Source: a virus (Duplodnaviria; Heunggongvirae; Uroviricota; Caudoviricetes). Taken from it: a stretch of DNA of 24,545 nucleotides. The stretch lies in IMG/VR virus record IMGVR_UViG_2579778797_000010. One strand, given 5' to 3'. Below are positions 4 to 18,115 of this stretch, piece after piece (the first letter of the stretch is position 1; each line of letters opens with the position of its first letter). The notes beneath the pieces were generated by a model. That model was not told where the DNA came from. It searched no databases and worked only from the letters and a program-made list of their open reading frames with translations. The position numbers and the translations under genes are program-made.

Positions 4-486
4 TCAATATTCCAGACAGACTCGCGGTTCATTTAAGCATCCATGCCCGCCCTGAACTCCGGGCACACCGTAAGTAAAATCAGCCACCCACAGCTGGTCA
101 GGACGTTCTGCCACGAACTGACGGTTTACGCGGTCGCCTGCGGCAACGGCTTTCCGGCTGATGGTCGTACGGACCTTTTTACCCCGGAGAACACCGGCAA
201 GTCCCATAACCGCCATGAGACGTGCCACAGTGCATCTGGCCACTCTGATACCTTCCCGTAACAACTGACGCCAGACTTTACGCACACCGTATACCTGGTG
301 ATTTTCATCGTATACGCGCTGTATCTCTTTCTTCAGCCAGTCATCGCGCTGCGCACGGGCACTGCGTTTATCCGGATGATGTCGTTGTTGCTGACAGTGG
401 TAATACGTTGACGGGGCAATATGCAGTTCGCTGCATAGCGGTCCGACCCCGTACTGCTCACGCAGCTTATCCAGCAGTGGCATCAT
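4..486 (-). pseudogene. IS3-family transposase OrfB, truncated (only N-terminal ~139 codons are transposase-like)
   Basis: Translation matches the IS3-family OrfB N-terminus up to QLWVADFTY (first D of the DDE motif), then diverges and stops at 4-6. Confidence 0.8.
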
Positions 487-863
487 TTTTTCCAGAGGCG
501 GTCGAACTCCGCCTTCGCAAAATAAGCGGAAGCCTGGCGAAGGATATCGTTACTGCGGCGCAGTTCACGATTTTCACGTTCCAGCTCTTTCAGACGCTGA
601 CGTTCAGCGGTGGTGAGCCCGCCATCACCGCTTCCGGTATCCCGCTCATGCTGGCGTACCCAGACACGCAGAGTCTCCGGCGTACAGCCAATCTTTGGAG
701 CAATGGAACAAATTGTCGCCCATTGTGAGTCATATTCGCCCTGACTTTCCAGAACCATACGGACTGCCCGTTGACGGACTTCGGGGGAAAAACGAGTATT
801 TTTAGTCATCCTGTTTACCTCTTTCTCAGGGAGTTTAGTCTCCAGGATTCCCGGGGCGGTTCA
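70..863 (-). mobile_element. Partial IS3-family insertion sequence (IS629/IS1203-like), distal part missing
   Basis: Minus-strand terminal inverted repeat TGAACCGCCCCGGGAATCC ends at 863. orfA and orfB overlap at 483-486. orfB similarity stops just after the conserved ADFTY motif near nt 70. Confidence 0.75.
483..809 (-). CDS. IS3-family transposase OrfA (HTH and leucine-zipper part), IS629-like
   Basis: 108-aa [22 protein letters not shown]...[33 protein letters not shown] at 807-809. Ends in GGAAAAAATGATG, where the orfB ATG overlaps the stop (typical -1 frameshift window). Confidence 0.85.
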
Positions 864-1839: not shown

Positions 1840-1920
1840 CCTTTTTCCGCGACGCTCCCGCCCCGTGGCAGGGGCCCCCACCGGGAGGACCCGACAGCCT
1901 GACAGCCTGACAGCCGTGAC
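1840..1920 (-). other. Candidate cos site (cosN-like GC-rich core plus tandem octamers) upstream of Nu1
   Basis: Minus strand reads GGGGCGGGAGCGTCGCGGAAAAAGGC, resembling the lambda left end GGGCGGCGACCTCGCGGGTTTTCGC, about 180-200 bp upstream of the Nu1 start. GACAGCCT GACAGCCT GACAGCC lies at 1893-1915. Confidence 0.4.
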
Positions 1921-2051
1921 GAGCATCTGATACAGCGCTTTACATAATGGCATAGGAATAATTCAGAAGGACATCACAGCATGCCCACACAAATTAGTGT
2001 GAGTGTCCTGTTTCTTCCTACGCACAGGACTGACGAGCATGAGGGGAAAAT

Positions 2052-2219
2052 ATGCGAACCATAAATGCCTCATCTTCAGCAATGCAGCCGGCATCCGAAC
2101 AGGACGATATTGTAAATTCACCTAATTACGAGGACATTGCAGTAGTTGAATTGCAGCTCTGTATTAGCCTGACAGTGACAGAATGCGATATTGACTCTGT
2201 CACAGGTGAAATAGTTTGA
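2052..2219 (+). CDS. Hypothetical small acidic protein (55 aa)
   Basis: ATG at 2052 preceded by GAGGGG; hand-translated as MRTINASSSAMQPASEQDDIVNSPNYEDIAVVELQLCISLTVTECDIDSVTGEIV. Below the ORF-track size cutoff. Confidence 0.3.
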   Translation: MRTINASSSAMQPASEQDDIVNSPNYEDIAVVELQLCISLTVTECDIDSVTGEIV

Positions 2220-2239
2220 ATGATTAGCAGTTATGGTGC

Positions 2240-2446
2240 TCAGTCAACCACCAGGGAATAATCCTTCGAATTCTTATCGTGCTTCACCAACGCTGCCTCA
2301 ATTGCCCTGAATGCTTCCAGAGACACCTGATGTTCTATACATGCAATTACAACATCCGGGTAACTCATAGAAATGGTGCTATTAAGCATATTTTTTACAC
2401 GAATCAGATCCAACGAGAGTTCATCAGCAGATTGTTCTTTATTCAT
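2240..2446 (-). CDS. Hypothetical protein (68 aa), possibly the ynfO-position gene of Qin
   Basis: ATG at 2444-2446 with GGAG 7-8 nt upstream; convergent with the 2052-2219 ORF; sits between Nu1 and the ydfO-like gene. Confidence 0.5.
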
Positions 2447-2746
2447 TTTGTCGCTCCATGCGTTTGCTCGTCATCTAGCGGTTAAAATATTACTTCAAAT
2501 CTTACTGCATAAAAGAGGAAAAGTATGAAAGTTTGAGTACATCGACCTTACATACATCTGTCGGTTGCATATCCCTCCTGGATGCCAGCAAGGCTCAATT
2601 TTGTTACGCAATCAACACTATTCATTAAAAACAGGCTTAATATTTGACATAAATCATCAACAAAACACAAAGAGGTCAGACCAGATTGAAACAATAAACA
2701 CGATAATGCAAACTACGCGCCATCGTATCACATGGAAGGTTTACCA

Positions 2747-3157
2747 ATGGCTCAGGCTGCCATTTTTAAAGAAATATTCGATCAAGTGCGTAAAGATTTA
2801 AACTGTGAATTATTTTATTCTGAGCTAAAACGTCACAATATCTCACTTTATATTTACTATTTAGCCACAGATAATATTCACATTGTGTTAGAAAACGACA
2901 ACATAGTGTTAGTAAAAGGACTCAAAAAGGTTGTAAATGTTAAATTCTCCAGAAACAAACATCTTATAGAGACCTCCTATAATAAGTTGAAATCAAAAGA
3001 AATCACATTTCAACAATACAGGGAAAATCTTGCTAAAGCAGGAGTTTTCCGATGGGTTACAAATATCCAGGAACACCAAAGATATTACTATGCCTTTGAT
3101 AACTCATTACTATTTACTGAAAGCATCCAGAAAACTACACAGATCTTACCACGCTAA
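2747..3157 (+). CDS. ydfO: DUF1398-family protein (YdfO/YbcV-like)
   Basis: 136-aa ORF from the internal ATG at 2747 (GGAAGG SD upstream): [30 protein letters not shown]... Position matches ydfO in Qin. Confidence 0.6.
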
Positions 3158-3308
3158 ACCATAACGTCCGGCTTCTCTCACTCCTGAGCCGGACTGCATT
3201 GGTTTAATAAAAACCATCAACAATTGTGATTTAGATATTCGGAACCATTCAAATATAACAAAACCCCGTAAAAACGAGGTTTATGGATAAATTTTATTAT
3301 TGAATACA

Positions 3309-3485
3309 TCAGATTAAATTAATCTTGACATCATAGCTTTCAAGACCCGTCATTTTTTCCCGTGCGGTAAACTGAATACTGGTAACTTCTTTCCCGGTCT
3401 TTTTCTTAAGTTCAATAATTTTTTTTGTTATATATTCAGAAATATCTGCTTCTGCTTTTGTTTTTAAGTTTTCAATATTCATCAT
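3309..3485 (-). CDS. gnsB: GnsA/GnsB-family small protein
   Basis: 58-aa ORF hand-translated codon by codon: MMNIENLKTKAEADISEYITKKIIELKKKTGKEVTSIQFTAREKMTGLESYDVKINLI. Strong AGAGGA SD. Below the ORF-track cutoff. Confidence 0.8.
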   Translation of the reverse strand: MMNIENLKTKAEADISEYITKKIIELKKKTGKEVTSIQFTAREKMTGLESYDVKINLI

Positions 3486-3653
3486 TTCCTCTTTTAGTCT
3501 GTTATGACTTTCCAGTTACACAGTAAGTCGATTATATGGTGCAAACGTGTAAAAGATAAGATGAAACATCGCAATAATCAACATACGATAGTCTAAATTT
3601 TACACAAACAGACAAAGAGAATTTTCCTGAATTATCAATACAATAGCATCAAA

Positions 3654-3948: not shown

Positions 3949-4155
3949 CTTCATTTTCACTTTTTTAAATCCAACGACAGACGGCTGGCATTTAAGTATT
4001 GTGAAATATTATCAAATGTAATCATCATTGATTTACAAAAGATACATTTTGCCCCGAAAGGATTCATGTCAGAAACATCAAAAGATGATGTTCTATACTG
4101 GGAACCATGACAACACGGGCATCTAAAGTGAATATGGTTTGTAATATTGTCTACC

Positions 4156-4368
4156 TCAAAGCGCCACTACATGAACAGCGGCAGGACCTTTAGGTCCGTT
4201 CTCAATACCAAATTCAACTTCCTGATTCTCAGTTAATGTTTTGAAATCGTTGCTCTGAATTGCTGAGAAATGGACAAACACATCTTTGCTGCCATCTTTC
4301 GGCGTGATGAAACCAAAACCTTTTTCAGGGTTAAACCATTTCACTAAACCAGTCATTTTGTTAGACAT
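4156..4368 (-). CDS. cspI: Cold shock protein CspI
   Basis: 70-aa product [70 protein letters not shown]; ATG at 4366-4368 checked. Confidence 0.95.
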
Positions 4369-4731
4369 AATTATTACCTTTTGAAGAAATTAGCCCTTGG
4401 GCAGAATGGTCCGAAAAAAAATATCAGAGAGAAAAACCAACAAGGAAATCTCAAGAGGTACAAATAATAAAATTATAACAATGACTGCTTCAGATAAATT
4501 TGTAACAAACCAGAACACCATTAACGCATGATTAACCACCCATAGCAAGGATTACTTTTGTAAAGAAAAACACAGCAATGAAAGAATAGCTTTATTTATT
4601 AATAATAACGTGTCATTCTGATTAAGACCTTTTATCTTACCCTTAAGATTTCAGGAGTTTTGGCTCATGGAAGAGTCCTTTTTATTTAAATTTTACATTC
4701 CGCGATGTAAATGTTCCGATTTAATATTACC

Positions 4732-5759: not shown

Positions 5760-6067
5760 ATATATTTATGATGAGGACGCTCGTGCTTATTGGCAGGATT
5801 TTCAATCTTAAAGGAGTACTGATGCTGCAGATAAGACTCAACTTTTTCTGACAATTTTTCTGCTACTTCCAGGAAGACTTGCCGGACGCTCCTTCTGGCT
5901 GCTGCCTCATAAAACTCCAGCGCAGCTCCTTCAACACGGTCCATGGCGACATCCAGGTCAAAAATTTCACCGTCAAAGCGTTCTTTGTCCTGTAAGGCTA
6001 CAGTTACCGTAACTTTATTCTCAAAATTACGGACTCCTTTCACAACCAGTTCATAGTCTTGAGTCAT
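5756..6067 (-). CDS. Hypothetical protein between holin and endolysin (YdfR-like, 103 aa)
   Basis: ATG at 6065-6067 with GGAGAG SD, 4 nt after the holin stop; translationally coupled to the lysozyme gene. Confidence 0.6.
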
Positions 6068-6071
6068 TGGA

Positions 6072-6287
6072 TTACTCTCCTCTCGCAGCCTTACGCCTGT
6101 CTTCTTTAATCTTGAAATAAAGATTTGTCAGATACGTCAGCAGGCCAAAAACCAGGCTACCCAGCACACCGATTGCAGCCCACTGTGACGGAGTTACTTT
6201 ATCGAGTAACTGCAATGCCCAGAAACCAGCATTACCCGCCGATGTGCCATAGGCAACACCTGTTGTTAACTTATCCATTGATTTCAT
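6072..6287 (-). CDS. Phage-21 S-type pinholin (class II holin) with dual start
   Basis: 71-aa product [71 protein letters not shown]; ATGs at 6285-6287 and 6276-6278 give the Met1/Met4 dual-start motif. Confidence 0.85.
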
Positions 6288-6506
6288 ATCCTCACCCCGA
6301 TGTACACGGATGGTGCAATATGTTTGAAAAGATCGGAGTCTACGGGGTAGTTTTGACAGCACACGCTGTTCTCAACGGCGCTAAAGAAACATACACATTA
6401 AAAATGTGAGTAATTATTTTGAAAGAAAGTCATATATAAAATAATAATACGAGAAATGTTTTCATATTTAGTGTACTGTATACGGCCATTTATACAGGAA
6501 AAGCCT

Positions 6507-6677
6507 ATGTCAGAACGTAAAGACTCAAAATCACGCCGTAATTATCTCGTTAAATGTTCCTGCCCAAACTGCACCCAAGAGTCAGAACACAGTTTTTCAA
6601 GAGTACAAAAAGGTGCCCTTTTGATCTGCCCTCATTGCAACAAAGTATTCCAGACAAATCTTAAAGCTGTAGCCTGA
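6507..6677 (+). CDS. Small zinc-ribbon protein (56 aa; CPNC...CPHC)
   Basis: Internal ATG at 6507 with an AGGAAAAG SD: MSERKDSKSRRNYLVKCSCPNCTQESEHSFSRVQKGALLICPHCNKVFQTNLKAVA. Confidence 0.5.
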   Translation: MSERKDSKSRRNYLVKCSCPNCTQESEHSFSRVQKGALLICPHCNKVFQTNLKAVA

Positions 6678-6736
6678 TTGATTTTATTAGTAACAAGTAT
6701 TTTTTATATTTTAATAATATATTTAAAGCAGATAAT

Positions 6737-6760
6737 AAAAAACCCGCCTGAGCGGGTTTG
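6737..6760. terminator. Bidirectional intrinsic terminator hairpin (between the zinc-ribbon ORF and cspB)
   Basis: AAAAACCCGC-CTGA-GCGGGTTT: GC stem with A-run on one side and T-run on the other. Confidence 0.5.
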
Positions 6761-7040
6761 AGATTGTGGTGCTTTTTGTGGGAGTCATCCACTTACGCAC
6801 TTTGTTTTGCCATGCCAGCAGTTAGCTTCTGCTGTAAAACTATTCATGCAGCAAACCTGCACTTCACCACAATGGTTAGCATACTTTTCCTGATTAAGAT
6901 TTTGCCAAATATGCTGGCCATTGTTTCATGTATTGGACCTCCTTAATTTTTATTAAAGAAATCCAATATTCACTACTCTGTCCGTATCTCTACTCAGGCA
7001 TCAGCCTTCTTCGTTATCGTATACAGACGAGCGATGAATT

Positions 7041-7256
7041 TTAATCAGTAATGATGACATTTGCTGCTGCAGGACCTTTAGCACCACTCTCTATAGAGAA
7101 GGTAACCTTTTGACCTTCAAATAAGGTTCGATAATTATCATTCTGAATCGCAGAAAAATGCACAAACACATCTTTACTACCATCAACAGGAGAAATAAAG
7201 CCGAAACCTTTATCAGCGTTAAACCATTTTACTAAACCAGTCATTTTATTTGACAT
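7041..7256 (-). CDS. cspB: Cold shock protein CspB
   Basis: 71-aa product [71 protein letters not shown]; start and stop verified. Confidence 0.95.
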
Positions 7257-7556
7257 TCTACATTCCTTAACTTGAGCCTTTCGGCATAAATGGTTTGCAT
7301 AACAGAAACGACTTCGTACTTAATTGGAGAGACTCAAAGAAGGAATAAGTGAATAACACCTGAAATGAGAACTGCTTTAGTAAACTACTTCGTATATCGT
7401 CTGTTCTTCAAACCGACGCAATCATTAACGCATAGTTGAACATATGAAGCAATGTTTATTTTAGACATCCAGCCATCTTCAACCCCATCAAAAAACTATA
7501 GCTTTCTTCAGGAACGTGTGTATAGTGCGCCAAGTTATCAGTATTAAGGAATTTTT

Positions 7557-7769
7557 TTGTCCCGTAAAATGACAGGAATTGTCAAAACCTTTGACGGCAA
7601 AAGCGGCAAGGGTCTTATCACCCCATCCGATGGTCGTATCGATGTCCAGCTTCATGTTTCAGCGCTCAATCTCCGCGATGCAGAAGAAATTACCACCGGA
7701 TTACGCGTGGAATTTTGCCGGATAAATGGTCTGCGTGGCCCTTCAGCTGCCAATGTTTACCTTTCATGA
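7557..7769 (+). CDS. cspF: Cold shock protein homologue CspF
   Basis: 70-aa product [70 protein letters not shown]. First codon is TTG (7557-7559) with AAGGA upstream. Confidence 0.85.
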
Positions 7770-7823
7770 GCTATATTAAAGCTTTAATTTCAGGCCCCAT
7801 CGGATCACACATGGAGAGTTTTT

Positions 7824-7913
7824 ATGAATAACCCCGTCTGTCTTGATGACTGGTTGATTGGCTTTAAAAGCTTATGCTGTACTTTGGCCGTAATAGCTCT
7901 GCTAATAATATAA
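7824..7913 (+). CDS. Hypothetical 29-aa hydrophobic peptide downstream of cspF
   Basis: ATG at 7824 five nt after GGAGAG; hand-translated [29 protein letters not shown]; lies between cspF and the terminator hairpin. Confidence 0.3.
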
Positions 7914-8057
7914 TAAGCAGACTCATTGTGTTTAGGGACATTGTACTGGAAGAAAACATTTTAAACATCAGGCAAATAACCAAGTCACCAGCTAAATAAT
8001 AAGTTAACAGACATGAGTCCCGGGATGAGATTCAACATTACCATTGCCCCATTTAAA

Positions 8058-8095
8058 GCACAAAACCCGCTCATCAGCGGGTTTTCTACTTTTTC
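8058..8095. terminator. Bidirectional intrinsic terminator (cspF 3' end; tR'-like for the leftward late transcript)
   Basis: AAAACCCGC-TCATCA-GCGGGTTTT hairpin with T-runs on both strands. Confidence 0.55.
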
Positions 8096-8130
8096 TTAAC
8101 GTCGGGTATACAAAGCCCATCATTGAAAAA

Positions 8131-8159
8131 ATTTTATCCATATTTTTTGAAAAATGCAA
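8131..8159 (-). promoter_or_regulatory. Candidate late promoter (pR'-like) just downstream of Q
   Basis: Minus strand reads TTGCAT, 17 bp, TAAAAT; lies ~35 bp after the Q stop and ~50-70 bp before the terminator hairpin. Confidence 0.35.
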
Positions 8160-8190
8160 ACATCATGTCGCCATCTTCAGCAAAAATCAT

Positions 8191-8943
8191 TTATCTCGTC
8201 ACCTTCCTCAATTGCGCTTCCGCGTATGCTTCTTCCTGCCAGCACTTTGTTACCAGTTTACCAATGACGTCCGCATACCCCTTATACCACTGATAATCGG
8301 TCAGGTCTGGTACCAGCTTCTGGACATGACGTCGTGCCAGCGTGGTCGGTAAACGACTAAACCGGTTTCCATTACAACGCCCACAAATCTTATATACCGG
8401 TACGCCATGAAACCGGGTTCTTTTTTCATCCAGAACAATCCCTTTACCCTTACACCCTCTGCACGCTGTGCTGGCTTCGCCCTTACCATGGCAATGCTGA
8501 CATAGTTCCTTCACCCATTCTTCCTTGATTACAGATTCCCCGCGTCTGTAGTGTTTCACCACTTCGCGCAATACATTATAAAATCCCGTACCTGAACAAT
8601 GCTCACAGCGAGCCTTACTTGCCGCAGACCTGGAGTAATCAGCAAAGGCAAAACTCACGAGGTAAGGAATAATCTGTAACCGGATTTCTTCACTCAATTT
8701 GTTCAATGTCGGGTTATCCAGTGCCATCGCGTAATTTAGCAGGCCTTCAATCGCAAACTGAGGGTCCTGAACACCAACTTTTGCCAGAAATAAGGCCAAC
8801 CCAAGTGGTGCTTTCGACTGCACCATCCCCTGCGCTGCCATTACATCCGTAATTGTTAAACAACCGGTGCCTGTCGCTGGAGCGTCATCGCTCAATTTTG
8901 GAGATTTTGGGGAGTAATATTTTGGTAAGGCTTCAAGGTTCAT
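8191..8943 (-). CDS. quuQ: Late-gene antiterminator Q (QuuQ-like)
   Basis: 250 aa from the ATG at 8941-8943 (MNLEALPKYYSPKSPKLSDDAPATG...), Cys-rich zinc-binding region (CEHCSGTG, CQHCHGKG, CRGCKGKG, CGRCNG). Confidence 0.9.
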   Translation of the reverse strand: MNLEALPKYYSPKSPKLSDDAPATGTGCLTITDVMAAQGMVQSKAPLGLALFLAKVGVQDPQFAIEGLLNYAMALDNPTLNKLSEEIRLQIIPYLVSFAFADYSRSAASKARCEHCSGTGFYNVLREVVKHYRRGESVIKEEWVKELCQHCHGKGEASTACRGCKGKGIVLDEKRTRFHGVPVYKICGRCNGNRFSRLPTTLARRHVQKLVPDLTDYQWYKGYADVIGKLVTKCWQEEAYAEAQLRKVTR

Positions 8944-10820: not shown

Positions 10821-10976
10821 TTACTCCTCAGGTTCGTAAGCTGTGAAGACAGCGACCTCCGTCTGGCCGGTTCGGATTCGTACCTCGCAGAGGTCTTTCC
10901 TCGTTACCAGTGCCGTCACTATGACGGTTAAACAGATGACGATCAGGGCGATTAACATCGCCTTTTGCTGCTTCAT
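10821..10976 (-). CDS. hokD: Hok-family membrane toxin HokD (RelF)
   Basis: Hand-translated codon by codon to MKQQKAMLIALIVICLTVIVTALVTRKDLCEVRIRTGQTEVAVFTAYEPEE (51 aa); below the ORF-track cutoff. Confidence 0.95.
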   Translation of the reverse strand: MKQQKAMLIALIVICLTVIVTALVTRKDLCEVRIRTGQTEVAVFTAYEPEE

Positions 10977-11047
10977 AGCCTGCTTCTCCTGTCAACGCAA
11001 AGCAGAAGTGTCACCTTCGGTGCGAAACAGAGATGTCATGCTTTGGT

Positions 11048-11335
11048 TCAGAGAATGCGTTTGACCGCCTCGCTATATACTTCCGAGCGTTCTCTTTTCC
11101 CAACAGAAATCACGAAAACGACAACTTTCTCGTCTATAACCTGGTATACAAGGCGATAGCCTGAAGACCGGAGCTTAATCTTGTAACAATCAGGCATACC
11201 ACGGAGCTTGTTTGCTTCAATCCGGGGTGACTCAAGTACTTCAACCAGCTTCTTTTTCAACTGTTCACGTACCGTCGAGCCCAGCTTTCGCCATTCCTTT
11301 AGTGCCCGCTCGTCAAAATCCAGAAAATACGCCAT
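11048..11335 (-). CDS. relE: RelE mRNA-interferase toxin
   Basis: 95-aa product MAYFLDFDERALKEWRKLGSTVREQLKKKLVEVLESPRIEANKLRGMPDCYKIKLRSSGYRLVYQVIDEKVVVFVISVGKRERSEVYSEAVKRIL. Confidence 0.95.
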   Translation of the reverse strand: MAYFLDFDERALKEWRKLGSTVREQLKKKLVEVLESPRIEANKLRGMPDCYKIKLRSSGYRLVYQVIDEKVVVFVISVGKRERSEVYSEAVKRIL

Positions 11336-11574
11336 CAGAGTTCATCCAGCGTCACACGTACTGGCTTAGGATTACGAAGCCGTTCTTTCACTATCTCCAC
11401 AAGTTCAGCATCTTCATCACTCAGGAGTGTCTGTTTGAACGGCAAGCGTTCATTGTCAGCGATATACTCGAGCATGAGACGAAGCGCTTCAGAAGGAGTT
11501 ACACCCATTTTTTCAAGCGCGGCGTAAGAACGCGCTTTAAGTTCATCGTCAATACGCAGGTTAATGCTACCCAT
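11335..11574 (-). CDS. relB: RelB antitoxin
   Basis: 79-aa product MGSINLRIDDELKARSYAALEKMGVTPSEALRLMLEYIADNERLPFKQTLLSDEDAELVEIVKERLRNPKPVRVTLDEL; stop overlaps the relE start. Confidence 0.95.
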   Translation of the reverse strand: MGSINLRIDDELKARSYAALEKMGVTPSEALRLMLEYIADNERLPFKQTLLSDEDAELVEIVKERLRNPKPVRVTLDEL

Positions 11575-11585
11575 GTCTTACACCT

Positions 11586-11611
11586 CTTGTAATTACAAAT
11601 GTCATTACAAG
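11586..11611. promoter_or_regulatory. relO-type operator palindrome in the relBE promoter
   Basis: CTTGTAATTACAAATGTCATTACAAG: inverted CTTGTAAT / ATTACAAG arms immediately upstream of relB. Confidence 0.65.
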
Positions 11612-11904
11612 TATCGCACTACAACATGCTTAGGGCAAGTCACGAAGGAAGTCAGAAAGTAGTCGTAAGAACGGTGATCACTGTCCGCTTTGTGCCAGGA
11701 GCAGCCATTGCTAAGTCCATCCTGTATTGTGCAGGTCAGCTCGTTTTTAAAGAGTCCGGCCATCATCTTACTGGTACAGACACCATATACTTTGTGACGG
11801 TCAGGCTACATATGCACAACTCAACTTATTCATCTATTTTTTGCTTTAGCATGTCAGTGTTGCTTTCTCGTCGGCGGGTGAGCGGTGACCTGACCTGTCG
11901 ATAA
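11599..11904 (+). CDS. Hypothetical ORF divergent from relB (ydfV position); coding status doubtful
   Basis: 101-codon ORF whose ATG lies inside the relO operator; low-complexity, non-protein-like composition. Confidence 0.25.
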   Translation: MSLQVSHYNMLRASHEGSQKVVVRTVITVRFVPGAAIAKSILYCAGQLVFKESGHHLTGTDTIYFVTVRLHMHNSTYSSIFCFSMSVLLSRRRVSGDLTCR

Positions 11905-12056
11905 AGGAACGTAGCACGTTTTATGCAACACCCGCATGCGGCAGAAAATTATTGCCGAACGTTTACCCCTGTCAACAAGCTTTACTTTCTGAGGCGCGCC
12001 AGCCCGCGAGGAAAACAATCTGAACATCAAACAATTAATGACACAAGAAATACGAT

Positions 12057-12083
12057 TAAAGATTTTTTTGTGCATGCCGATAG
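12057..12083 (+). promoter_or_regulatory. Sigma-28 (FliA) promoter of flxA
   Basis: TAAAGATT, 11 bp, GCCGATAG matches the sigma-28 consensus TAAAGTTT-N11-GCCGATAA; ~24 bp upstream of the flxA ATG. Confidence 0.65.
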
Positions 12084-12106
12084 TGCTTTTTTAAAAGGAG
12101 AAATCT

Positions 12107-12439
12107 ATGTCTGTCACAATTCAGGGAAATACCTCAACCGTTATTTCAAACAACTCCGCCCCGGAAGGAACATCAGAAATAGCCAAAATCACAAGACAAA
12201 TTCAGGTGCTGACTGAAAAGCTTGGGAAAATCTCATCGGAAGAGGGGATGACGACACAGCAGAAAAAAGAAATGGCTGCATTGGTACAGAAGCAAATTGA
12301 AAGCCTCAGGGCTCAACTGGAGCAGTTGTTAAGGCAGCAGGCAGAGAAAAAGAATAAAGACGCGACAGTTCAGCCTGATAAAAAAGAAGAGAAAAAAGAC
12401 GATACAAATACCGCTGGCACCATTGATATTTACGTCTAA
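12107..12439 (+). CDS. flxA: FlxA (FliA-regulated protein)
   Basis: 110-aa product MSVTIQGNTSTVISNNSAPEGTSEIAKITRQIQVLTEKLGKISSEEGMTTQQKKEMAALVQKQIESLRAQLEQLLRQQAEKKNKDATVQPDKKEEKKDDTNTAGTIDIYV. Confidence 0.95.
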   Translation: MSVTIQGNTSTVISNNSAPEGTSEIAKITRQIQVLTEKLGKISSEEGMTTQQKKEMAALVQKQIESLRAQLEQLLRQQAEKKNKDATVQPDKKEEKKDDTNTAGTIDIYV

Positions 12440-12453
12440 GTGACAGCCGTATT

Positions 12454-12476
12454 GTGGCCCTCATCGGGCCACTTTT
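12454..12476 (+). terminator. Intrinsic terminator of flxA
   Basis: GTGGCCC-TCATC-GGGCCAC followed by TTTTCG. Confidence 0.7.
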
Positions 12477-12639
12477 CGCCATCAGCCTTTTCTTTAAAGA
12501 CATATTATCTTTGTATCATTTCTGATAGTTAACATTACAAGATATAAGTAATGGACGCACTCCCAATTAGTCTATTTAAATCGCCACGAGTTTAACTGAC
12601 AACCCATGATCAATTATGAATTGCAACTATTTCTGTAGT

Positions 12640-14280
12640 CACTTTTGTGGGGACAGTCCACAAAACTGCCAACTTCCGCTTCTTGCTCTTAGCGGACATT
12701 AGCATAGGCTATTTACCATAACGCCTCATTACGCGCACCGCCCAGACTGACTCAGCGCGTTTCTGGCATATCCCCGGTAAAACAAGTAACAAACCACCCG
12801 AAAATGAACACCAGAAACGCGACTTAAGAATCTACCCTATGAATGGATATGCACTCAACCGAATCGATCTTGGTTTCAATCTATTTTATCGGGATCAGGC
12901 TTCTTTTTAGGTAACTTCGGGGGCTTAACTTGCTGATGACTTTGCGTTCGGCGCGTAAGCCAGGGATGGTCAGCTTTAGATTTAACATAGTATTTTGAGC
13001 GTAAATCAATACGGGCATTATCCACTCGTTCATGGACACTCTTTTCATCATCCAGTGGTATAGGCTCCGGGCCATCAACATACTTTTCCCAGCCCAGCGC
13101 TTTCCCGTCATACAGAACGTTAATTTCACCGTCAAAGTTCTCACATACAGTAACAACTGAATGCCTAAGTCGATATCCCCGGCCCTCACTGCGTACCTGA
13201 AACGCACTGCTTTTGTACTGGAAAGTGAGATTTTTAGACAGAACGCGCTTCGCCTGTAGGCTGAAGATATAACCCAGTTCCTCTTCAGAATGGTGCACAT
13301 CAAGATGAGCATTATCAGTAGTACGAGGCGACGTAGCGAACCGGTTGTTATAGGCTTCAATAAAGGTCGGCAACCATGCATTTGCTGTTTCAATATCACT
13401 GATATTCTGAAGCCGCATTTCTTTGACCAGCCTGTCCTGTAGTGTCTGATTGGCGCGCTCTACCCGCCCTTTTGCCTGCGGGCTGTTGGCATGGATTGGC
13501 TCGATGCCCAGTGTCTTTATCGCACGAGTGAACTGGGTCAGCTCACCTTCCCGCTCTGGGTTATTTACCCTGAATATACTGTGTCTATCAGAGTAGAGAG
13601 CGAGCGGTACGCCATGATCATTAAGGTAACCCCGGAGGGTTTCCATGTAAGCCCGGGTTGTTTCAGCAGGCACAAAACGCAACGCCATCAACGCACTGGT
13701 GGCATCATCAATGAAAACGATCAGTGTACATCTGGGGCCTCGATTTTCAAACCAGTCATGAGGTGAGCCATCAATCTGGATCAGTTCACCGTAAGATGGT
13801 CGTCGCATGCGGCGTTGATATATACGGGCAATTTTACGACGGCGTTCACGCCATAACCCCTCTTCTATCATCCACTTTCTGAGAGTTTCAACGGATAAAG
13901 ATAAACCGTGTATCTCGCGCAATTTTTCGCACGCAAACGTAGGTCCAAAATCAGCGTAACGGCCTTTGAGGAGTGAAATTACTGTTGCTCTGAATTCAGT
14001 AGAAAAGGAATTATTAGGACGCTTTCCACGTCGGTGGGAAACCAGACCAGAAGGCCCTTCATTTCTATACCGTTGCACCAGACGTTTAACCTGCCGAATA
14101 GAAATGCCAATGCGTGCCGCAGCTTGTTCCTGAGTAATATGTCGATTAATTGACTCCTGAATAATCTGAAGTCGGTGGAGTTCCTTATGACTCATCGTAA
14201 CAGTCTCTTTGATCATGAAAAATCCCCCAGAGAATTGTCTGGGGACATTTTAGAATGGTTCAAAGGGGACATTACAGCTT
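12640..14280 (-). mobile_element. Insertion element carrying an rve/DDE transposase (IS481- or ISNCY-like); boundaries approximate
   Basis: Single large transposase gene with HTH N-terminus. GGGGACA motifs at 12648-12654 and at 14241-14247 and 14265-14271. Terminal inverted repeats could not be resolved by eye. Confidence 0.45.
12876..14216 (-). CDS. DDE transposase with integrase-core (rve) domain and N-terminal HTH
   Basis: 446 aa; HTH (ITQEQAAARIGISIRQVKRLVQRY), catalytic candidates in ELIQIDGSPHDW, ALYSDRHSIF and PQAKGRVERANQTLQDRL (D, D, E spacing typical of retroviral-integrase-type transposases). Confidence 0.85.
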   Translation of the reverse strand: MIKETVTMSHKELHRLQIIQESINRHITQEQAAARIGISIRQVKRLVQRYRNEGPSGLVSHRRGKRPNNSFSTEFRATVISLLKGRYADFGPTFACEKLREIHGLSLSVETLRKWMIEEGLWRERRRKIARIYQRRMRRPSYGELIQIDGSPHDWFENRGPRCTLIVFIDDATSALMALRFVPAETTRAYMETLRGYLNDHGVPLALYSDRHSIFRVNNPEREGELTQFTRAIKTLGIEPIHANSPQAKGRVERANQTLQDRLVKEMRLQNISDIETANAWLPTFIEAYNNRFATSPRTTDNAHLDVHHSEEELGYIFSLQAKRVLSKNLTFQYKSSAFQVRSEGRGYRLRHSVVTVCENFDGEINVLYDGKALGWEKYVDGPEPIPLDDEKSVHERVDNARIDLRSKYYVKSKADHPWLTRRTQSHQQVKPPKLPKKKPDPDKID

Positions 14281-14669
14281 GGTGTTAACAATAGCCTGCT
14301 TCTCCTTGCCTTCCGGCACTCGCGACAGATTATGTTTAGACGACTGTCGTAGCGACGTATTTCTCCGTCAGGTAATGACCAGATAAGGTCCGGATCAACC
14401 ACAGCAGGTTTCTTCACCTTTGCCCTCGAGAGTTTTTTGCGGGCGTTTTGCCAGTCCTTACGCGCCTGTTCAGACGGGAATAACCCGTAACCAGAGCTGT
14501 ATACATCGCCACTGGCAACCAGCTCTCTGGCCAGAACGCTCATCAGATATCTTGTTGCCCCAGTTTTAGCTTCCAGTTGTCGTAACGTCTCGCGCCCACT
14601 CTGGCGTACGAGTTCCACCACCTGCCCTTTAATTTTTTCCCGCTCTTCTTGTGTAAAAACTTTTGCCAC
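14250..14669 (-). CDS. Hypothetical protein (139 aa) co-transcribed downstream of the replication initiator; C-terminus may be altered by the IS insertion
   Basis: GTG start at 14667-14669 with strong AGGAGG SD, 40 nt after the rep stop. Last ~9 codons are encoded by the GGGGACA-containing sequence next to the transposase. Confidence 0.5.
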   Translation of the reverse strand: MAKVFTQEEREKIKGQVVELVRQSGRETLRQLEAKTGATRYLMSVLARELVASGDVYSSGYGLFPSEQARKDWQNARKKLSRAKVKKPAVVDPDLIWSLPDGEIRRYDSRLNIICRECRKARRSRLLLTPSCNVPFEPF

Positions 14670-14709
14670 AAGTCCTCCTGAACATTACTTTATACCCTAA
14701 AATCAACAC

Positions 14710-15675
14710 TTATCCCCTGAAACCAGGCGGAATTTCTGTATCCGGTTCAGAAATATGATTCACACAACGCTGTACAGGTGAACGTCCCAGGCGGATGACC
14801 AGTTCGTCCCATTTTTCGCGGAGTTTTGACGGGCTCATGATGTTTTTTACCCAGAATTGATCTCGCTGTACCCGACCAAACATTTCGCAAATTTGTCTGT
14901 GGCTTCTGCCATCCAGCATCCGCATTGTGCGCACGTCATTGGCCCAGGCTGTCCAGTTAGGCTCTTTTGGTCGCATGATCTCTCCATCGTCGCTGGCAGC
15001 CTGTTCGTAAAGGTTCACGATCCGCCCCCAAATCCACTGCGCACACGCCAAATCCTCCCTGCTACCCCACTGGCGTTTTTTCGCACTAAACACAACCGCG
15101 TCGGGGTTCCGGGTTAAAAAATCCTGTTCAGCGGTCTGCGGGTCCGGTTGCGAAGCTTCCGGACGAAAAGTGTTTTTATTCTCTGTAGTAATCTCTGTTG
15201 TATTCTCTGTAAGATTATCAGGCCATTTTGACCCGATGACATTGGGTCGTTTTGAACCAATGGAGCGTTTCATTTTGACCTCTTCCATCGTGTCATTTTG
15301 ACCTGATGGAGCGGCGCATTTTAAACCGATGGATTCGCTCAATTTGCCACCATCTAAAAGCTCGCTCCCGTAGTTGATCGTGTAGAAATTGGTCATATCG
15401 CGCTTTGATTTATTGAGCTTTTCACAACGCAAAAGCCCCAGCGTTTTCAGACTTGCAAACGCGCGCTTTAACGTTGACTCTGACCAGAATGGGAACTGTT
15501 CCAGCCATTGTTCCGTTGTGTTGTAAATCCAGCGAACACCATCACATTCCATGCCGGAATTGGTATCTCTCAACCAGTAATGCAACTGCTGCAACACAAT
15601 GGCTTCATTTAAGCCAATCTTCATCGCAAGCTGTGTGTTTATAACCAGTGGGCGTTCAGCAAAAAGAAGGCTCAT
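14710..15675 (-). CDS. Phage replication initiator (lambda O-like, origin-binding; ori iterons embedded)
   Basis: 321 aa from the ATG at 15673-15675 (alternative TTG at 15729). N-terminal winged-helix-like region; the coding sequence contains six ~23-bp iterons, as ori-lambda does inside O. Confidence 0.6.
   Translation of the reverse strand: MSLLFAERPLVINTQLAMKIGLNEAIVLQQLHYWLRDTNSGMECDGVRWIYNTTEQWLEQFPFWSESTLKRAFASLKTLGLLRCEKLNKSKRDMTNFYTINYGSELLDGGKLSESIGLKCAAPSGQNDTMEEVKMKRSIGSKRPNVIGSKWPDNLTENTTEITTENKNTFRPEASQPDPQTAEQDFLTRNPDAVVFSAKKRQWGSREDLACAQWIWGRIVNLYEQAASDDGEIMRPKEPNWTAWANDVRTMRMLDGRSHRQICEMFGRVQRDQFWVKNIMSPSKLREKWDELVIRLGRSPVQRCVNHISEPDTEIPPGFRG
15224..15354. repeat. Origin-type iteron array: six direct repeats at ~23-bp spacing (core CATTTTGACC) inside the rep gene
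   Basis: Copies start at 15224, 15248, 15271, 15294, 15317 and 15340. Preceded by three 12-bp direct repeats CTCTGTNNNANT at 15181-15216. Confidence 0.75.
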
Positions 15676-16177
15676 AATTCCATCCAGCTTTTTGTTGGTA
15701 TTGCTGTCGATACGCAAGTTTGAAAGCAATTGCTTTTTCTATAAGTTCGTCAGTTTCACGATCCACTACGGCAGGATCAGCAAAAAGCAGTCCGGACTCC
15801 ACCACATCGCCATATTCTTTGTTTAACCCGGCGATCATGTACGTGATGCTTTTTCCGTCACTAATTTCACGATACAACCTGAAATCATTAATCCGAATAG
15901 CCTCCATAATTGCAGGCACTAGCGCCGTGAACTTTTCACGCTTATCCCTGGTGTCGATAGCCTTCCAGCGTTCGAATATCTTCACTCGATTAACGCCAAG
16001 TGCTCGCTGATCAACCGCGCCACCTTCATCTGTGACACGCTGAACATCGATGTTCGGGCGCTCTTTCAAAGCCCAGAATGCTTCAGTGATTAATATCGTC
16101 GCCTGCTCCTGTGTCATTCCTGGTCGACATATCCAGGCATCCAGAGCCTCACGAGCCTGTTCAGGAGTGATTTTCAT
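15656..16177 (-). CDS. YdaT-like protein (CII analogue of Rac-type immunity regions)
   Basis: 173 aa, ATG at 16175-16177, directly downstream of the Cro-like dicC; contains a motif (KREKFTALVPAIMEAI) resembling what I recall of Rac YdaT. Confidence 0.5.
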   Translation of the reverse strand: MKITPEQAREALDAWICRPGMTQEQATILITEAFWALKERPNIDVQRVTDEGGAVDQRALGVNRVKIFERWKAIDTRDKREKFTALVPAIMEAIRINDFRLYREISDGKSITYMIAGLNKEYGDVVESGLLFADPAVVDRETDELIEKAIAFKLAYRQQYQQKAGWNYEPSFC

Positions 16178-16465: not shown

Positions 16466-16873
16466 ATGAACGAGAAAACTTTAGGTCAACGCATTAGAGA
16501 AAGACGTAAGCAGGTAGGCTTAAGTCAAAACGGTTTAAGCAAAGCTGCTGGCGTATCTGGCTCATCAATTTCATTATGGGAAAGTGACCATACAGCCCCG
16601 CGCGGGCAAAATTTGCATCGCCTCGCCGAGGTATTGCAATGTTCACCAACTTGGATACTGTTTGGCGACGAGGACAAAACACCAGCTCCCCCTGTTTCAC
16701 TCGATAGTGCCTTAGACTTATCGGAAGATGAGTTAGAGATGCTGCGTTTGTATCGCGCACTTCCTAAATCAGAGCAACAAGCACAACTCAGCGAACTCCG
16801 CGCCCGCGTTGAGAATTTTAATCGCCTGTTCACCGAGCTATTAGAGGCTCGCAAACGCAACAAGCATCAATAA
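16466..16873 (+). CDS. dicA: CI-like XRE-family repressor (DicA homologue)
   Basis: 135 aa; N-terminal XRE HTH (LGQRIRERRKQVGLSQNGLSKAAGVSGSSISLWE); C-terminal half shares the QCSPTWILFGDEDK motif with DicA. Confidence 0.75.
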   Translation: MNEKTLGQRIRERRKQVGLSQNGLSKAAGVSGSSISLWESDHTAPRGQNLHRLAEVLQCSPTWILFGDEDKTPAPPVSLDSALDLSEDELEMLRLYRALPKSEQQAQLSELRARVENFNRLFTELLEARKRNKHQ

Positions 16874-18056: not shown

Positions 18057-18115
18057 TTTTCTGGTGACGTTTGGCGGTATCAGTTTTACTCCGTGACTGC
18101 TCTGCCGCCCTTTTT
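18057..18115 (+). ncRNA. dicF: DicF small RNA (ftsZ/cell-division inhibitor sRNA)
   Basis: TTTCTGGTGACGTTTGGCGGTATCAGTTTTACTCCGTGACTGCTCTGCCGCCCTTTTT matches DicF as I recall it, including the terminal GC hairpin and U-tail. Confidence 0.85.

Follow-up and report, generated by a model that had tools for sequence, protein, structure and literature searches.

Toothman and Herskowitz are said to have found, in 1980, that ren mutants of phage lambda are sensitive to Rex exclusion. The lambda ren gene is transcribed from PR together with O and P, is described as 'likely involved in DNA replication', and encodes a protein for which a Ren-Rex interaction was seen in two-hybrid assays (bioRxiv 10.1101/2021.04.19.439022). 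Proteins of the DUF977 family, which carry the label LygF in many phage records, are encoded by the gene after the replication gene in Qin/Rac-type prophages and temperate coliphages, the same place that concerns us here. HHpred/COMPASS independently assigned duf977 as a winged helix (PMC2686095). Our search of the literature on DUF977 and LygF returned no functional data and one paper on Fic-domain fusions, the lygF matches being unrelated vertebrate lysozyme genes or serovar-marker mentions in Salmonella. The mobile elements closest to the one described below belong to the IS1202 family, which is recognized by TGT/ACA ends, imperfect inverted repeats of ~24-29 bp, a subterminal site, a direct duplication and a transposase of 394-507 aa (PMC10132070); Harmer and Hall (2023) list ISEsa1 there at 1609 bp, with inverted repeats of 15/22 and without a detectable duplication.

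Here we compare with these systems a 139-aa reading frame in the window, by which we mean the whole stretch of 24,545 nucleotides of viral DNA that was analysed. The frame is very probably a 3'-truncated, chimeric DUF977/Ren-like allele of a Qin-type lambdoid cryptic prophage, fused by a deletion to the leader of hokD.

Position and family of the reading frame

In E. coli this DNA is the Qin (Kim) cryptic prophage region, and the features needed to place the reading frame in it are as follows:

14250-14669, minus strand: chimeric DUF977/Ren-like reading frame, 139 aa (420-nt CDS), with a GTG start at 14667-14669
14674-14679, minus strand: Shine-Dalgarno sequence AGGAGG, read directly
14710-15729, minus strand: O-like replication initiator, upstream of the 139-aa frame (PHROG 391, E 6e-93; PGAP start at 15675, 321 aa)
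16466-16873, plus strand: dicA-like repressor
18059-18110: DicF RNA

After the dicA-like gene, the minus strand carries P22-Cro-like, YdaT/cII-like and O-like genes and then the 139-aa frame, an order common to the window, E. coli E2865, the ET5 prophage (which is free of the insertion sequence) and the genome L010 (GCA_002764735.1). On the 3' side of the frame follow, in order, an ISEsa1-type transposase gene on the same strand, which begins 33 nt after the frame's stop, and then flxA, ydfV, relB, relE and hokD. The frame thus occupies the place of a DUF977/Ren-like gene, directly 3' of the replication gene in a lambdoid early-right operon, with a 40-nt gap (14670-14709) between the stop of the replication gene (14710-14712) and the GTG. 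The spacer from AGGAGG to GTG, as read from the sequence, is rather short at 4 nt (ACTT). A CDS identical to the frame is present in E2865, where RefSeq/PGAP calls it from the same start as a 'DUF977 family protein' (WP_001151195.1). All of this agrees with what an earlier note on this DNA had said of the coordinates, the GTG start, the AGGAGG and the 40-nt distance; its view that the gene is probably real is right, and its rep gene upstream is the O-like initiator.

The 139-aa protein matched Pfam PF06163 (DUF977) at 79.1 bits (cut-off 22.1 bits, E 4e-22) and PHROG 142, 'Ren-like exclusion protein' (E 4e-35); a search of the NCBIfam profiles gave no family for it. We found 852 homologues, the commonest length being 141 aa. 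Among 1.84 billion cluster representatives, searched exhaustively, only 104 matched, the full-length ones 117-155 aa long, which makes DUF977 a narrow enterobacterial family; a tblastn query with an intact homologue drew only 24 close relatives from 50,697 phage records. In ET5, a 151-aa DUF977 gene stands directly after the same replication gene. The match of the window protein spans profile positions 1-115 of 134 only, positions 116-134 being absent and the C-terminal motif severed after CRECRK, and the intact homologue P0029 fills positions 1-134. The window protein is therefore a truncated member of DUF977 and not an intact one.

The severed motif is the best-conserved stretch of the family. 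In an alignment of 16 sequences it reads N-x-I-C-x-E-C-R-x-S-x-x-M-x-R-V-L-A-F-Y, is kept down to 27% identity and is common to lambda Ren. Across members at 27-35% identity together with lambda Ren, N112, E117 and C118 are invariant, and S121, M124, R126, L128 and the F/Y are nearly so. The window protein leaves the family alignment right after K120, retaining the first half of the motif (NIICRECRK).

Breakpoint and origin of the C-terminal tail

The segments from which the frame is assembled, and the junction between the first two, are these:

14310-14669, minus strand: native DUF977/Ren-like part, codons 1-120 (winged helix-turn-helix, long helix, linker and first half of the motif)
14310-14319: deletion junction, 8-10 nt of microhomology, CTTCCGGC(AC), common to the DUF977 gene and the hokD leader
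14291-14309, minus strand: remnant of the hokD leader and Shine-Dalgarno sequence, 19 nt, encoding A121-L126 and the first base of L127
14250-14290, minus strand: right terminal inverted repeat of the element, encoding the rest of L127 through F139 (LLTPSCNVPFEPF, codons 127-139) and the TAA

Through K120 (codon 14310-14312) the window protein equals the 151-aa ET5 homologue save for S58N; beyond that point the two are unrelated, and the last 19 residues of the window protein are unrelated to the family as a whole. This foreign tail of 19 codons, ARRSRLLLTPSCNVPFEPF, is of mixed origin: the hokD leader supplies about six of them and the element's right inverted repeat 13. The 19-nt leader remnant recurs immediately 5' of the hokD ATG in ET5 and, in E686 and 2017.03.02CC, on the right-hand side of the element. 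In ET5 and E686 it falls within the match to the Rfam sok model RF01794 (118 and 106 bits), for which the window gave no match. In a three-way comparison, agreement with the window reaches 14317-14319 for the parents with the hok leader (L003, L004 and ET5) and starts at 14310 for the DUF977 parent (ET5).

The C-terminus thus comes from IS-proximal sequence, as the earlier note had proposed: the last 19 codons are non-native and lie beside and inside a mobile element. Its further statement that the last codons run through the GGGGACA repeats is right for the copy at 14265-14271 (codons GTC CCC), the only one that the frame crosses, but not for the copy at 14241-14247, which lies beyond the stop and is separated from the TAA (14250-14252) by 2 nt (14248-14249). 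One of the two, read as the transposase-site repeat TGTCCCC, is held by the right inverted repeat, and the second is that at 14241-14247. The exchange of 21-31 native residues for 19 foreign ones makes the near-normal length of 139 aa a coincidence. It masks the chimeric C-terminus and calls for caution when the end of the family is defined from sequences of the WP_001151195 type. The gene belongs to a kind that is known and already annotated (DUF977 / Ren-like), of which it is a decayed, chimeric version.

One might instead take the 139-aa protein for a natural tail variant of the family, intact and fully functional. Its length is near the usual 141 aa, family tails come in several forms after about residue 134 (fusions of 167-179 aa also occur), the exact junction is found in 105 of 5426 complete E. 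coli genomes, and PGAP treats the allele as an ordinary CDS. We nevertheless consider this improbable: natural variation starts after AFYQGN, whereas the break here falls 14 residues earlier, inside the motif, and the replacement can be traced to the hok leader and the transposon inverted repeat. The earlier note had looked to homologues of ~139 aa with the same C-terminus in insertion-free prophages as evidence against truncation; about that length is the rule in such prophages, but their C-terminus differs and is conserved.

The preferred reading of the frame as a truncated chimera has consequences for its product. The protein is probably still made, because the start signals are intact and the gene sits in an operon. 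Some C-terminal change is tolerated in the family, as the variation of natural tails makes clear; the 139-aa form, however, lacks the C-terminal helix and half of the invariant motif, and is on that ground probably a crippled remnant. Its persistence in 105 genomes could reflect neutrality or residual function.

As to how the end was lost, a deletion between the short matches CTTCCGGC(AC) very probably joined codon 120 to the hokD leader, taking with it the last 21-31 codons of the gene, any cargo that lay between the gene and hokD, and the sok/mok part of the latter locus. In related prophages the interval between the gene and hokD holds defence-type cargo, namely an AIPR protein in ET5 and a KwaB-like protein with QueH in E686. 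A search for the native 3' end that the DUF977 gene lacks found no part of it in the window. Separately, a 3.3-kb ISEsa1-type transposon with relBE-ydfV-flxA sits at the start codon of hokD, its right inverted repeat, 19 nt past the junction, supplying the last 13 codons and the stop. The L010 genome has the same K120::hok-leader junction as the window with the element absent, its frame running to 179 aa, out of frame through hokD; the loss of the C-terminus is thus independent of the element, which sets only where the chimeric frame stops. L010 also has a 14-nt tandem duplication, which we considered as an excision footprint; it is purely native leader sequence and is offset by 4 nt from the duplication in the window.

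The earlier note had ascribed the truncation to the transposase insertion. The native end is indeed missing, but the insertion did not cut the gene, because 19 nt of hok leader intervene between the end of the element at 14290 and the gene, the duplication (ATAGCCTGCTTCTCC) is hokD and not DUF977 sequence, and the L010 junction is free of the element; nor does the rest of the gene lie beyond the other end of the element, being absent from the window. The homology break at 14309/14310 was also considered as the IS end and rejected, since independent plasmid copies end at 14290 and the next 19+ nt are hok leader.

A different part for the element would be an IS-mediated adjacent deletion, in which it sat first at hokD and its transposase then deleted from the right end into the DUF977 gene. 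This would fit an element that adjoins the junction and has an intact transposase frame, and a possible ancestor exists in E686, where an element-bearing hokD locus has the leader and cargo in place. Such deletions, however, begin exactly at the element terminus, whereas 19-29 nt of hok leader remain here; the microhomology at the junction is typical of replication slippage or illegitimate recombination; and the junction in L010 comes without the element. We therefore regard this route as very unlikely, and keep to a deletion between short matches with a separate insertion at hokD.

The mobile unit at hokD

Downstream of the reading frame the window holds the following features, all of which bear on the element at hokD:

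10821-10976, minus strand: hokD
10975-10989: left target duplication, 15 bp, ATAGCCTGCTTCTCC, overlapping the hokD Shine-Dalgarno sequence and the AT of the start codon
10990-14290: putative transposable unit, 3301 bp, with 5'-TGT...ACA-3' ends and 19/26 terminal inverted repeats
11048-11335: relE, in the 3301-bp unit
11335-11574: relB, in the 3301-bp unit
11599-11904: ydfV, in the 3301-bp unit
12107-12439: flxA, in the 3301-bp unit
12876-14216, minus strand: transposase gene, ISEsa1-type (IS1202 family / ISNCY), full-length at 446 aa (NCBIfam NF033594, E 1e-139)
14291-14305: right target duplication, 15 bp, ATAGCCTGCTTCTCC, within the 19-nt hokD leader remnant

What had been taken for a simple IS is likely the right end of a 3.3-kb IS1202-family cargo transposon (relBE, ydfV, flxA), which would be site-specific for the Shine-Dalgarno sequence and start codon of hok genes and would generate 15-bp duplications. 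The right terminus (...GTTAACA) falls at 14290, up to which five independent copies (L003, L004, L006/7, L008 and L009) are identical and after which they differ, and a scan for inverted repeats placed the best leftward partner of the right repeat at 10990 (19/26). Both ends of the unit start with TGT and each has a second TGTC(A/C)CC site. ET5 represents the empty site, with a single copy of the 15-bp sequence. The same 3.3-kb unit is found in plasmid hok genes at 99.3-99.6% identity, with a transposase CDS of equal length (1341 nt). It is bracketed by one 15-bp duplication in Enterobacter pEnt261 (ATGGCCTTCTTCTCC) and by another in an IncI plasmid of Salmonella (ATCATAGCCCCTCCA); the duplications in the window, L008 and L009 are three different sequences. 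That independent copies carry different 15-bp duplications on both sides indicates transposition and not homologous recombination, and these duplications are what suggests that the 3.3-kb unit may be mobile as a whole.

In its termini, repeats, subterminal site, duplication and 446-aa transposase, the unit at 10990-14290 conforms to the IS1202 family. It resembles ISEsa1 and its relatives in having a transposase of ~440 aa with N-terminal HTH domains and a DDE core, TGT...ACA ends with imperfect repeats of ~26 bp, and a second transposase site inside each end, and its 15-bp duplication is close to those of the 16-17-bp group of the family (PMC10132070). It differs from ISEsa1 in its length of 3301 bp, in having a duplication, in its relBE-ydfV-flxA cargo, and in being found always at a hok start codon. 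An internal left repeat near 12671-12682, where a length of 1609 bp would put it, was considered and rejected, the sites there being only right-end-like and in the wrong orientation. In L012, a copy 91% identical, the corresponding left boundary abuts an ISEsa2 insertion.

If the unit is what it appears to be, the relB-relE-hokD (relBEF) operon of K-12 would have been created by an insertion of this kind, and the travel of relBE on a hok-targeting transposon would explain the origin of that operon. The insertion would also have severed hokD from its mok/sok control region, one toxin-antitoxin module entering another and rewiring it, and ISEsa1 as ISfinder records it (1609 bp, no duplication) would be a left-truncated form. 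Such a transposon would matter more than the DUF977 allele beside it. In our literature search, outside which the older subscription literature lies, no paper linked relBE to such an element.

The Qin prophage of K-12 has the arrangement of the window minus 13061-15897. Given that loss, K-12 ydfW is the C-terminus of the transposase and ydfX the remnant of the YdaT-like gene.

Comparison with helicase loaders and lambda Ren

From the position of the frame just 3' of an O-like replication gene, with a transposase gene immediately downstream, the earlier note had drawn a lambda P- or DnaC-like helicase loader of ~230-250 aa cut to 139 aa by direct IS insertion, a reading with next to no chance of being right, as it is already refuted by the family assignment and the IS-free loci: the only profile matches are to DUF977/PHROG 142, the helicase-loader families (lambda P, PF06992; DnaC/IstB-like AAA+) gave no match in Pfam, NCBIfam or PHROGs, the intact homologues are far shorter (117-155 aa), the IS-free ET5 has its 151-aa gene at this very place, and the hok leader, the hokD duplication and the absent 3' end speak against direct insertion. 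The alignment with full-length homologues that the note had suggested does reveal a truncation, after K120 of the ET5 protein, but not of a loader. The Qin-type module has no separate loader gene between the replication gene and the 139-aa frame. With the loaders of lambda P and DnaC type the frame shares a general neighbourhood only, downstream of an O-like initiator; it is about half their size and has no sequence or profile similarity to them. A plausible mis-annotation is thereby corrected. For the gene itself the analysis matters very little: it is a decayed allele of a common, functionally uncharacterised prophage gene.

The fold of the intact family was approached through an AF2 model of P0029 (mean pLDDT 76). 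Residues 11-80 are predicted to form a winged helix-turn-helix and a long helix (pLDDT ~90), followed by a low-confidence linker and then a helix at 117-140 in which the motif lies; confidence is low over the C-terminal half of the model. The top Foldseek matches of this model in the PDB were all winged-helix regulators (MarR, GntR, ArsR and Z-alpha), in agreement with the HHpred/COMPASS assignment in PMC2686095; none of the PDB matches reached E<=1e-3, and no specific functional analogue emerged among them.

The tie between DUF977 and lambda Ren runs through the PHROGs and a direct pairwise comparison, since tblastn of the intact DUF977 query against the 50,697 phage records did not retrieve lambda. 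BLASTP of P0029 against lambda Ren gave E 2e-6 over the C-terminal 57 aa; together with the PHROG clustering, this one modest pairwise value is what suggests a link between the two. The shared motif offers a concrete hypothesis for a family that is without functional data: by analogy, intact DUF977 proteins may be small DNA-binding accessories of the replication/early module, acting like lambda Ren.

In gene position the parallel is close, lambda ren coming immediately after O and P and the Ren-like frame of the window right after the O-like gene. Lambda Ren (96 aa) and DUF977 have in common the C-terminal motif (F/C)xECRxSxxMxRVLA(F/V)Y, but DUF977 proteins are ~45 aa longer, with an extra helix and a linker, and lambda Ren falls below the Pfam threshold for DUF977, showing weak HTH-type Pfam matches only. 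The window protein, for its part, is without the half of the motif that ties DUF977 most clearly to lambda Ren.

The relBE-bearing unit at hokD

The genes relE, relB, ydfV and flxA lie together with the ISEsa1 transposase gene in a single 3301-bp unit, which is bounded by a short duplication of the region in which hokD begins and is present both in the window and in four other loci.

Features of the unit (window coordinates)
10990-14290: relE-relB-ydfV-flxA plus the ISEsa1 transposase gene (3301 bp); ends TGT...ACA, inverted repeats matching at 19 of 26 positions
10975-10989 and 14291-14305: flanking 15-bp duplication, copies of the hokD Shine-Dalgarno/start-codon region
10975-14305: unit plus both duplications; the unit also occurs in L008 and L009 (plasmid hok genes), L012 (a 91%-identical copy) and L013
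12649-12717: two internal right-end-like transposase sites (reverse complement, ...ACTGTCCCC and ...AATGTCCGC)

The empty insertion site is present in E. coli ET5, and in plasmid hok genes the same site has been hit by independent insertions, each with a different 15-bp duplication. The ISfinder entry for ISEsa1 gives 1609 bp and no duplication (PMC10132070). Both internal sites are oriented as the true right end and coincide with the point at which the match to the 1.6-kb 'ISEsa1' copies starts; the relBE-ydfV-flxA part may be a formerly separate element, or the internal sites may be a nested end. Insertion of the unit at hokD would account both for how the relBEF operon arose and for the loss of mok/sok from hokD.

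Cargo and deletions between the DUF977 gene and hokD

The interval that separates DUF977 from hokD in Qin-type prophages looks like a cargo hotspot: its contents are of defence type and vary between prophages. In the window this interval has been deleted.

Cargo and junction in comparison loci
ET5 (L002), 1846-3621: AIPR family protein
E686 (L004), 5824-8337: KwaB-like protein and QueH
GCA_002764735.1 (L010, BELN01000023.1), 4355-4395: DUF977 joined after K120 to the hok leader as in the window, transposon absent

The element-free junction in GCA_002764735.1 contains a perfect 14-nt tandem duplication, GCAAGGAGAAGCAG, nearly exactly at the transposon's insertion site, which could be an insertion/excision footprint or else simple slippage. 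A second, independent fusion is found in some E. coli as a 177-aa protein (Pfam DUF977 plus Hok/Gef) in which the C-terminal 38 residues of HokD follow DUF977 in frame after AFYQGNFEE. This fusion stems from a different deletion than that in the window, suggesting that deletions across the interval are recurrent.

The early-right operon

The transposase gene is located within the prophage early-right operon, its ATG (14216) only 33 nt beyond the stop of the chimeric ORF and on the same strand (14216-14252), so that DicA derepression could give read-through into it. Farther upstream, the O-like rep protein ends in ~20-26 residues (from 314-320 to 339; 14710-14770) that weakly match both the extreme C-terminus of the primosomal protein DnaT (NCBIfam, E 0.006) and, in several PHROGs of phage replication initiators, the C-terminal tip. 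This end of the rep protein may serve as a short motif for recruiting the host replisome, in place of a separate helicase loader.

Comparison with the Qin prophage of K-12

Rfam matches elsewhere in the window (412-528, 4129-4514 and 7025-7417) comprise an ALIL frameshift pseudoknot of an IS3-family element together with two leaders of the cspA thermoregulator type, which belong to the Qin csp genes. The Qin prophage of E. coli K-12 has the arrangement of the window minus a 2.8-kb deletion (window 13061-15897), and has neither rep nor the DUF977 gene. Its ydfW is the final 49 codons of the transposase ORF (window 12876-13025), and its ydfX is what remains of the YdaT/cII-like gene.
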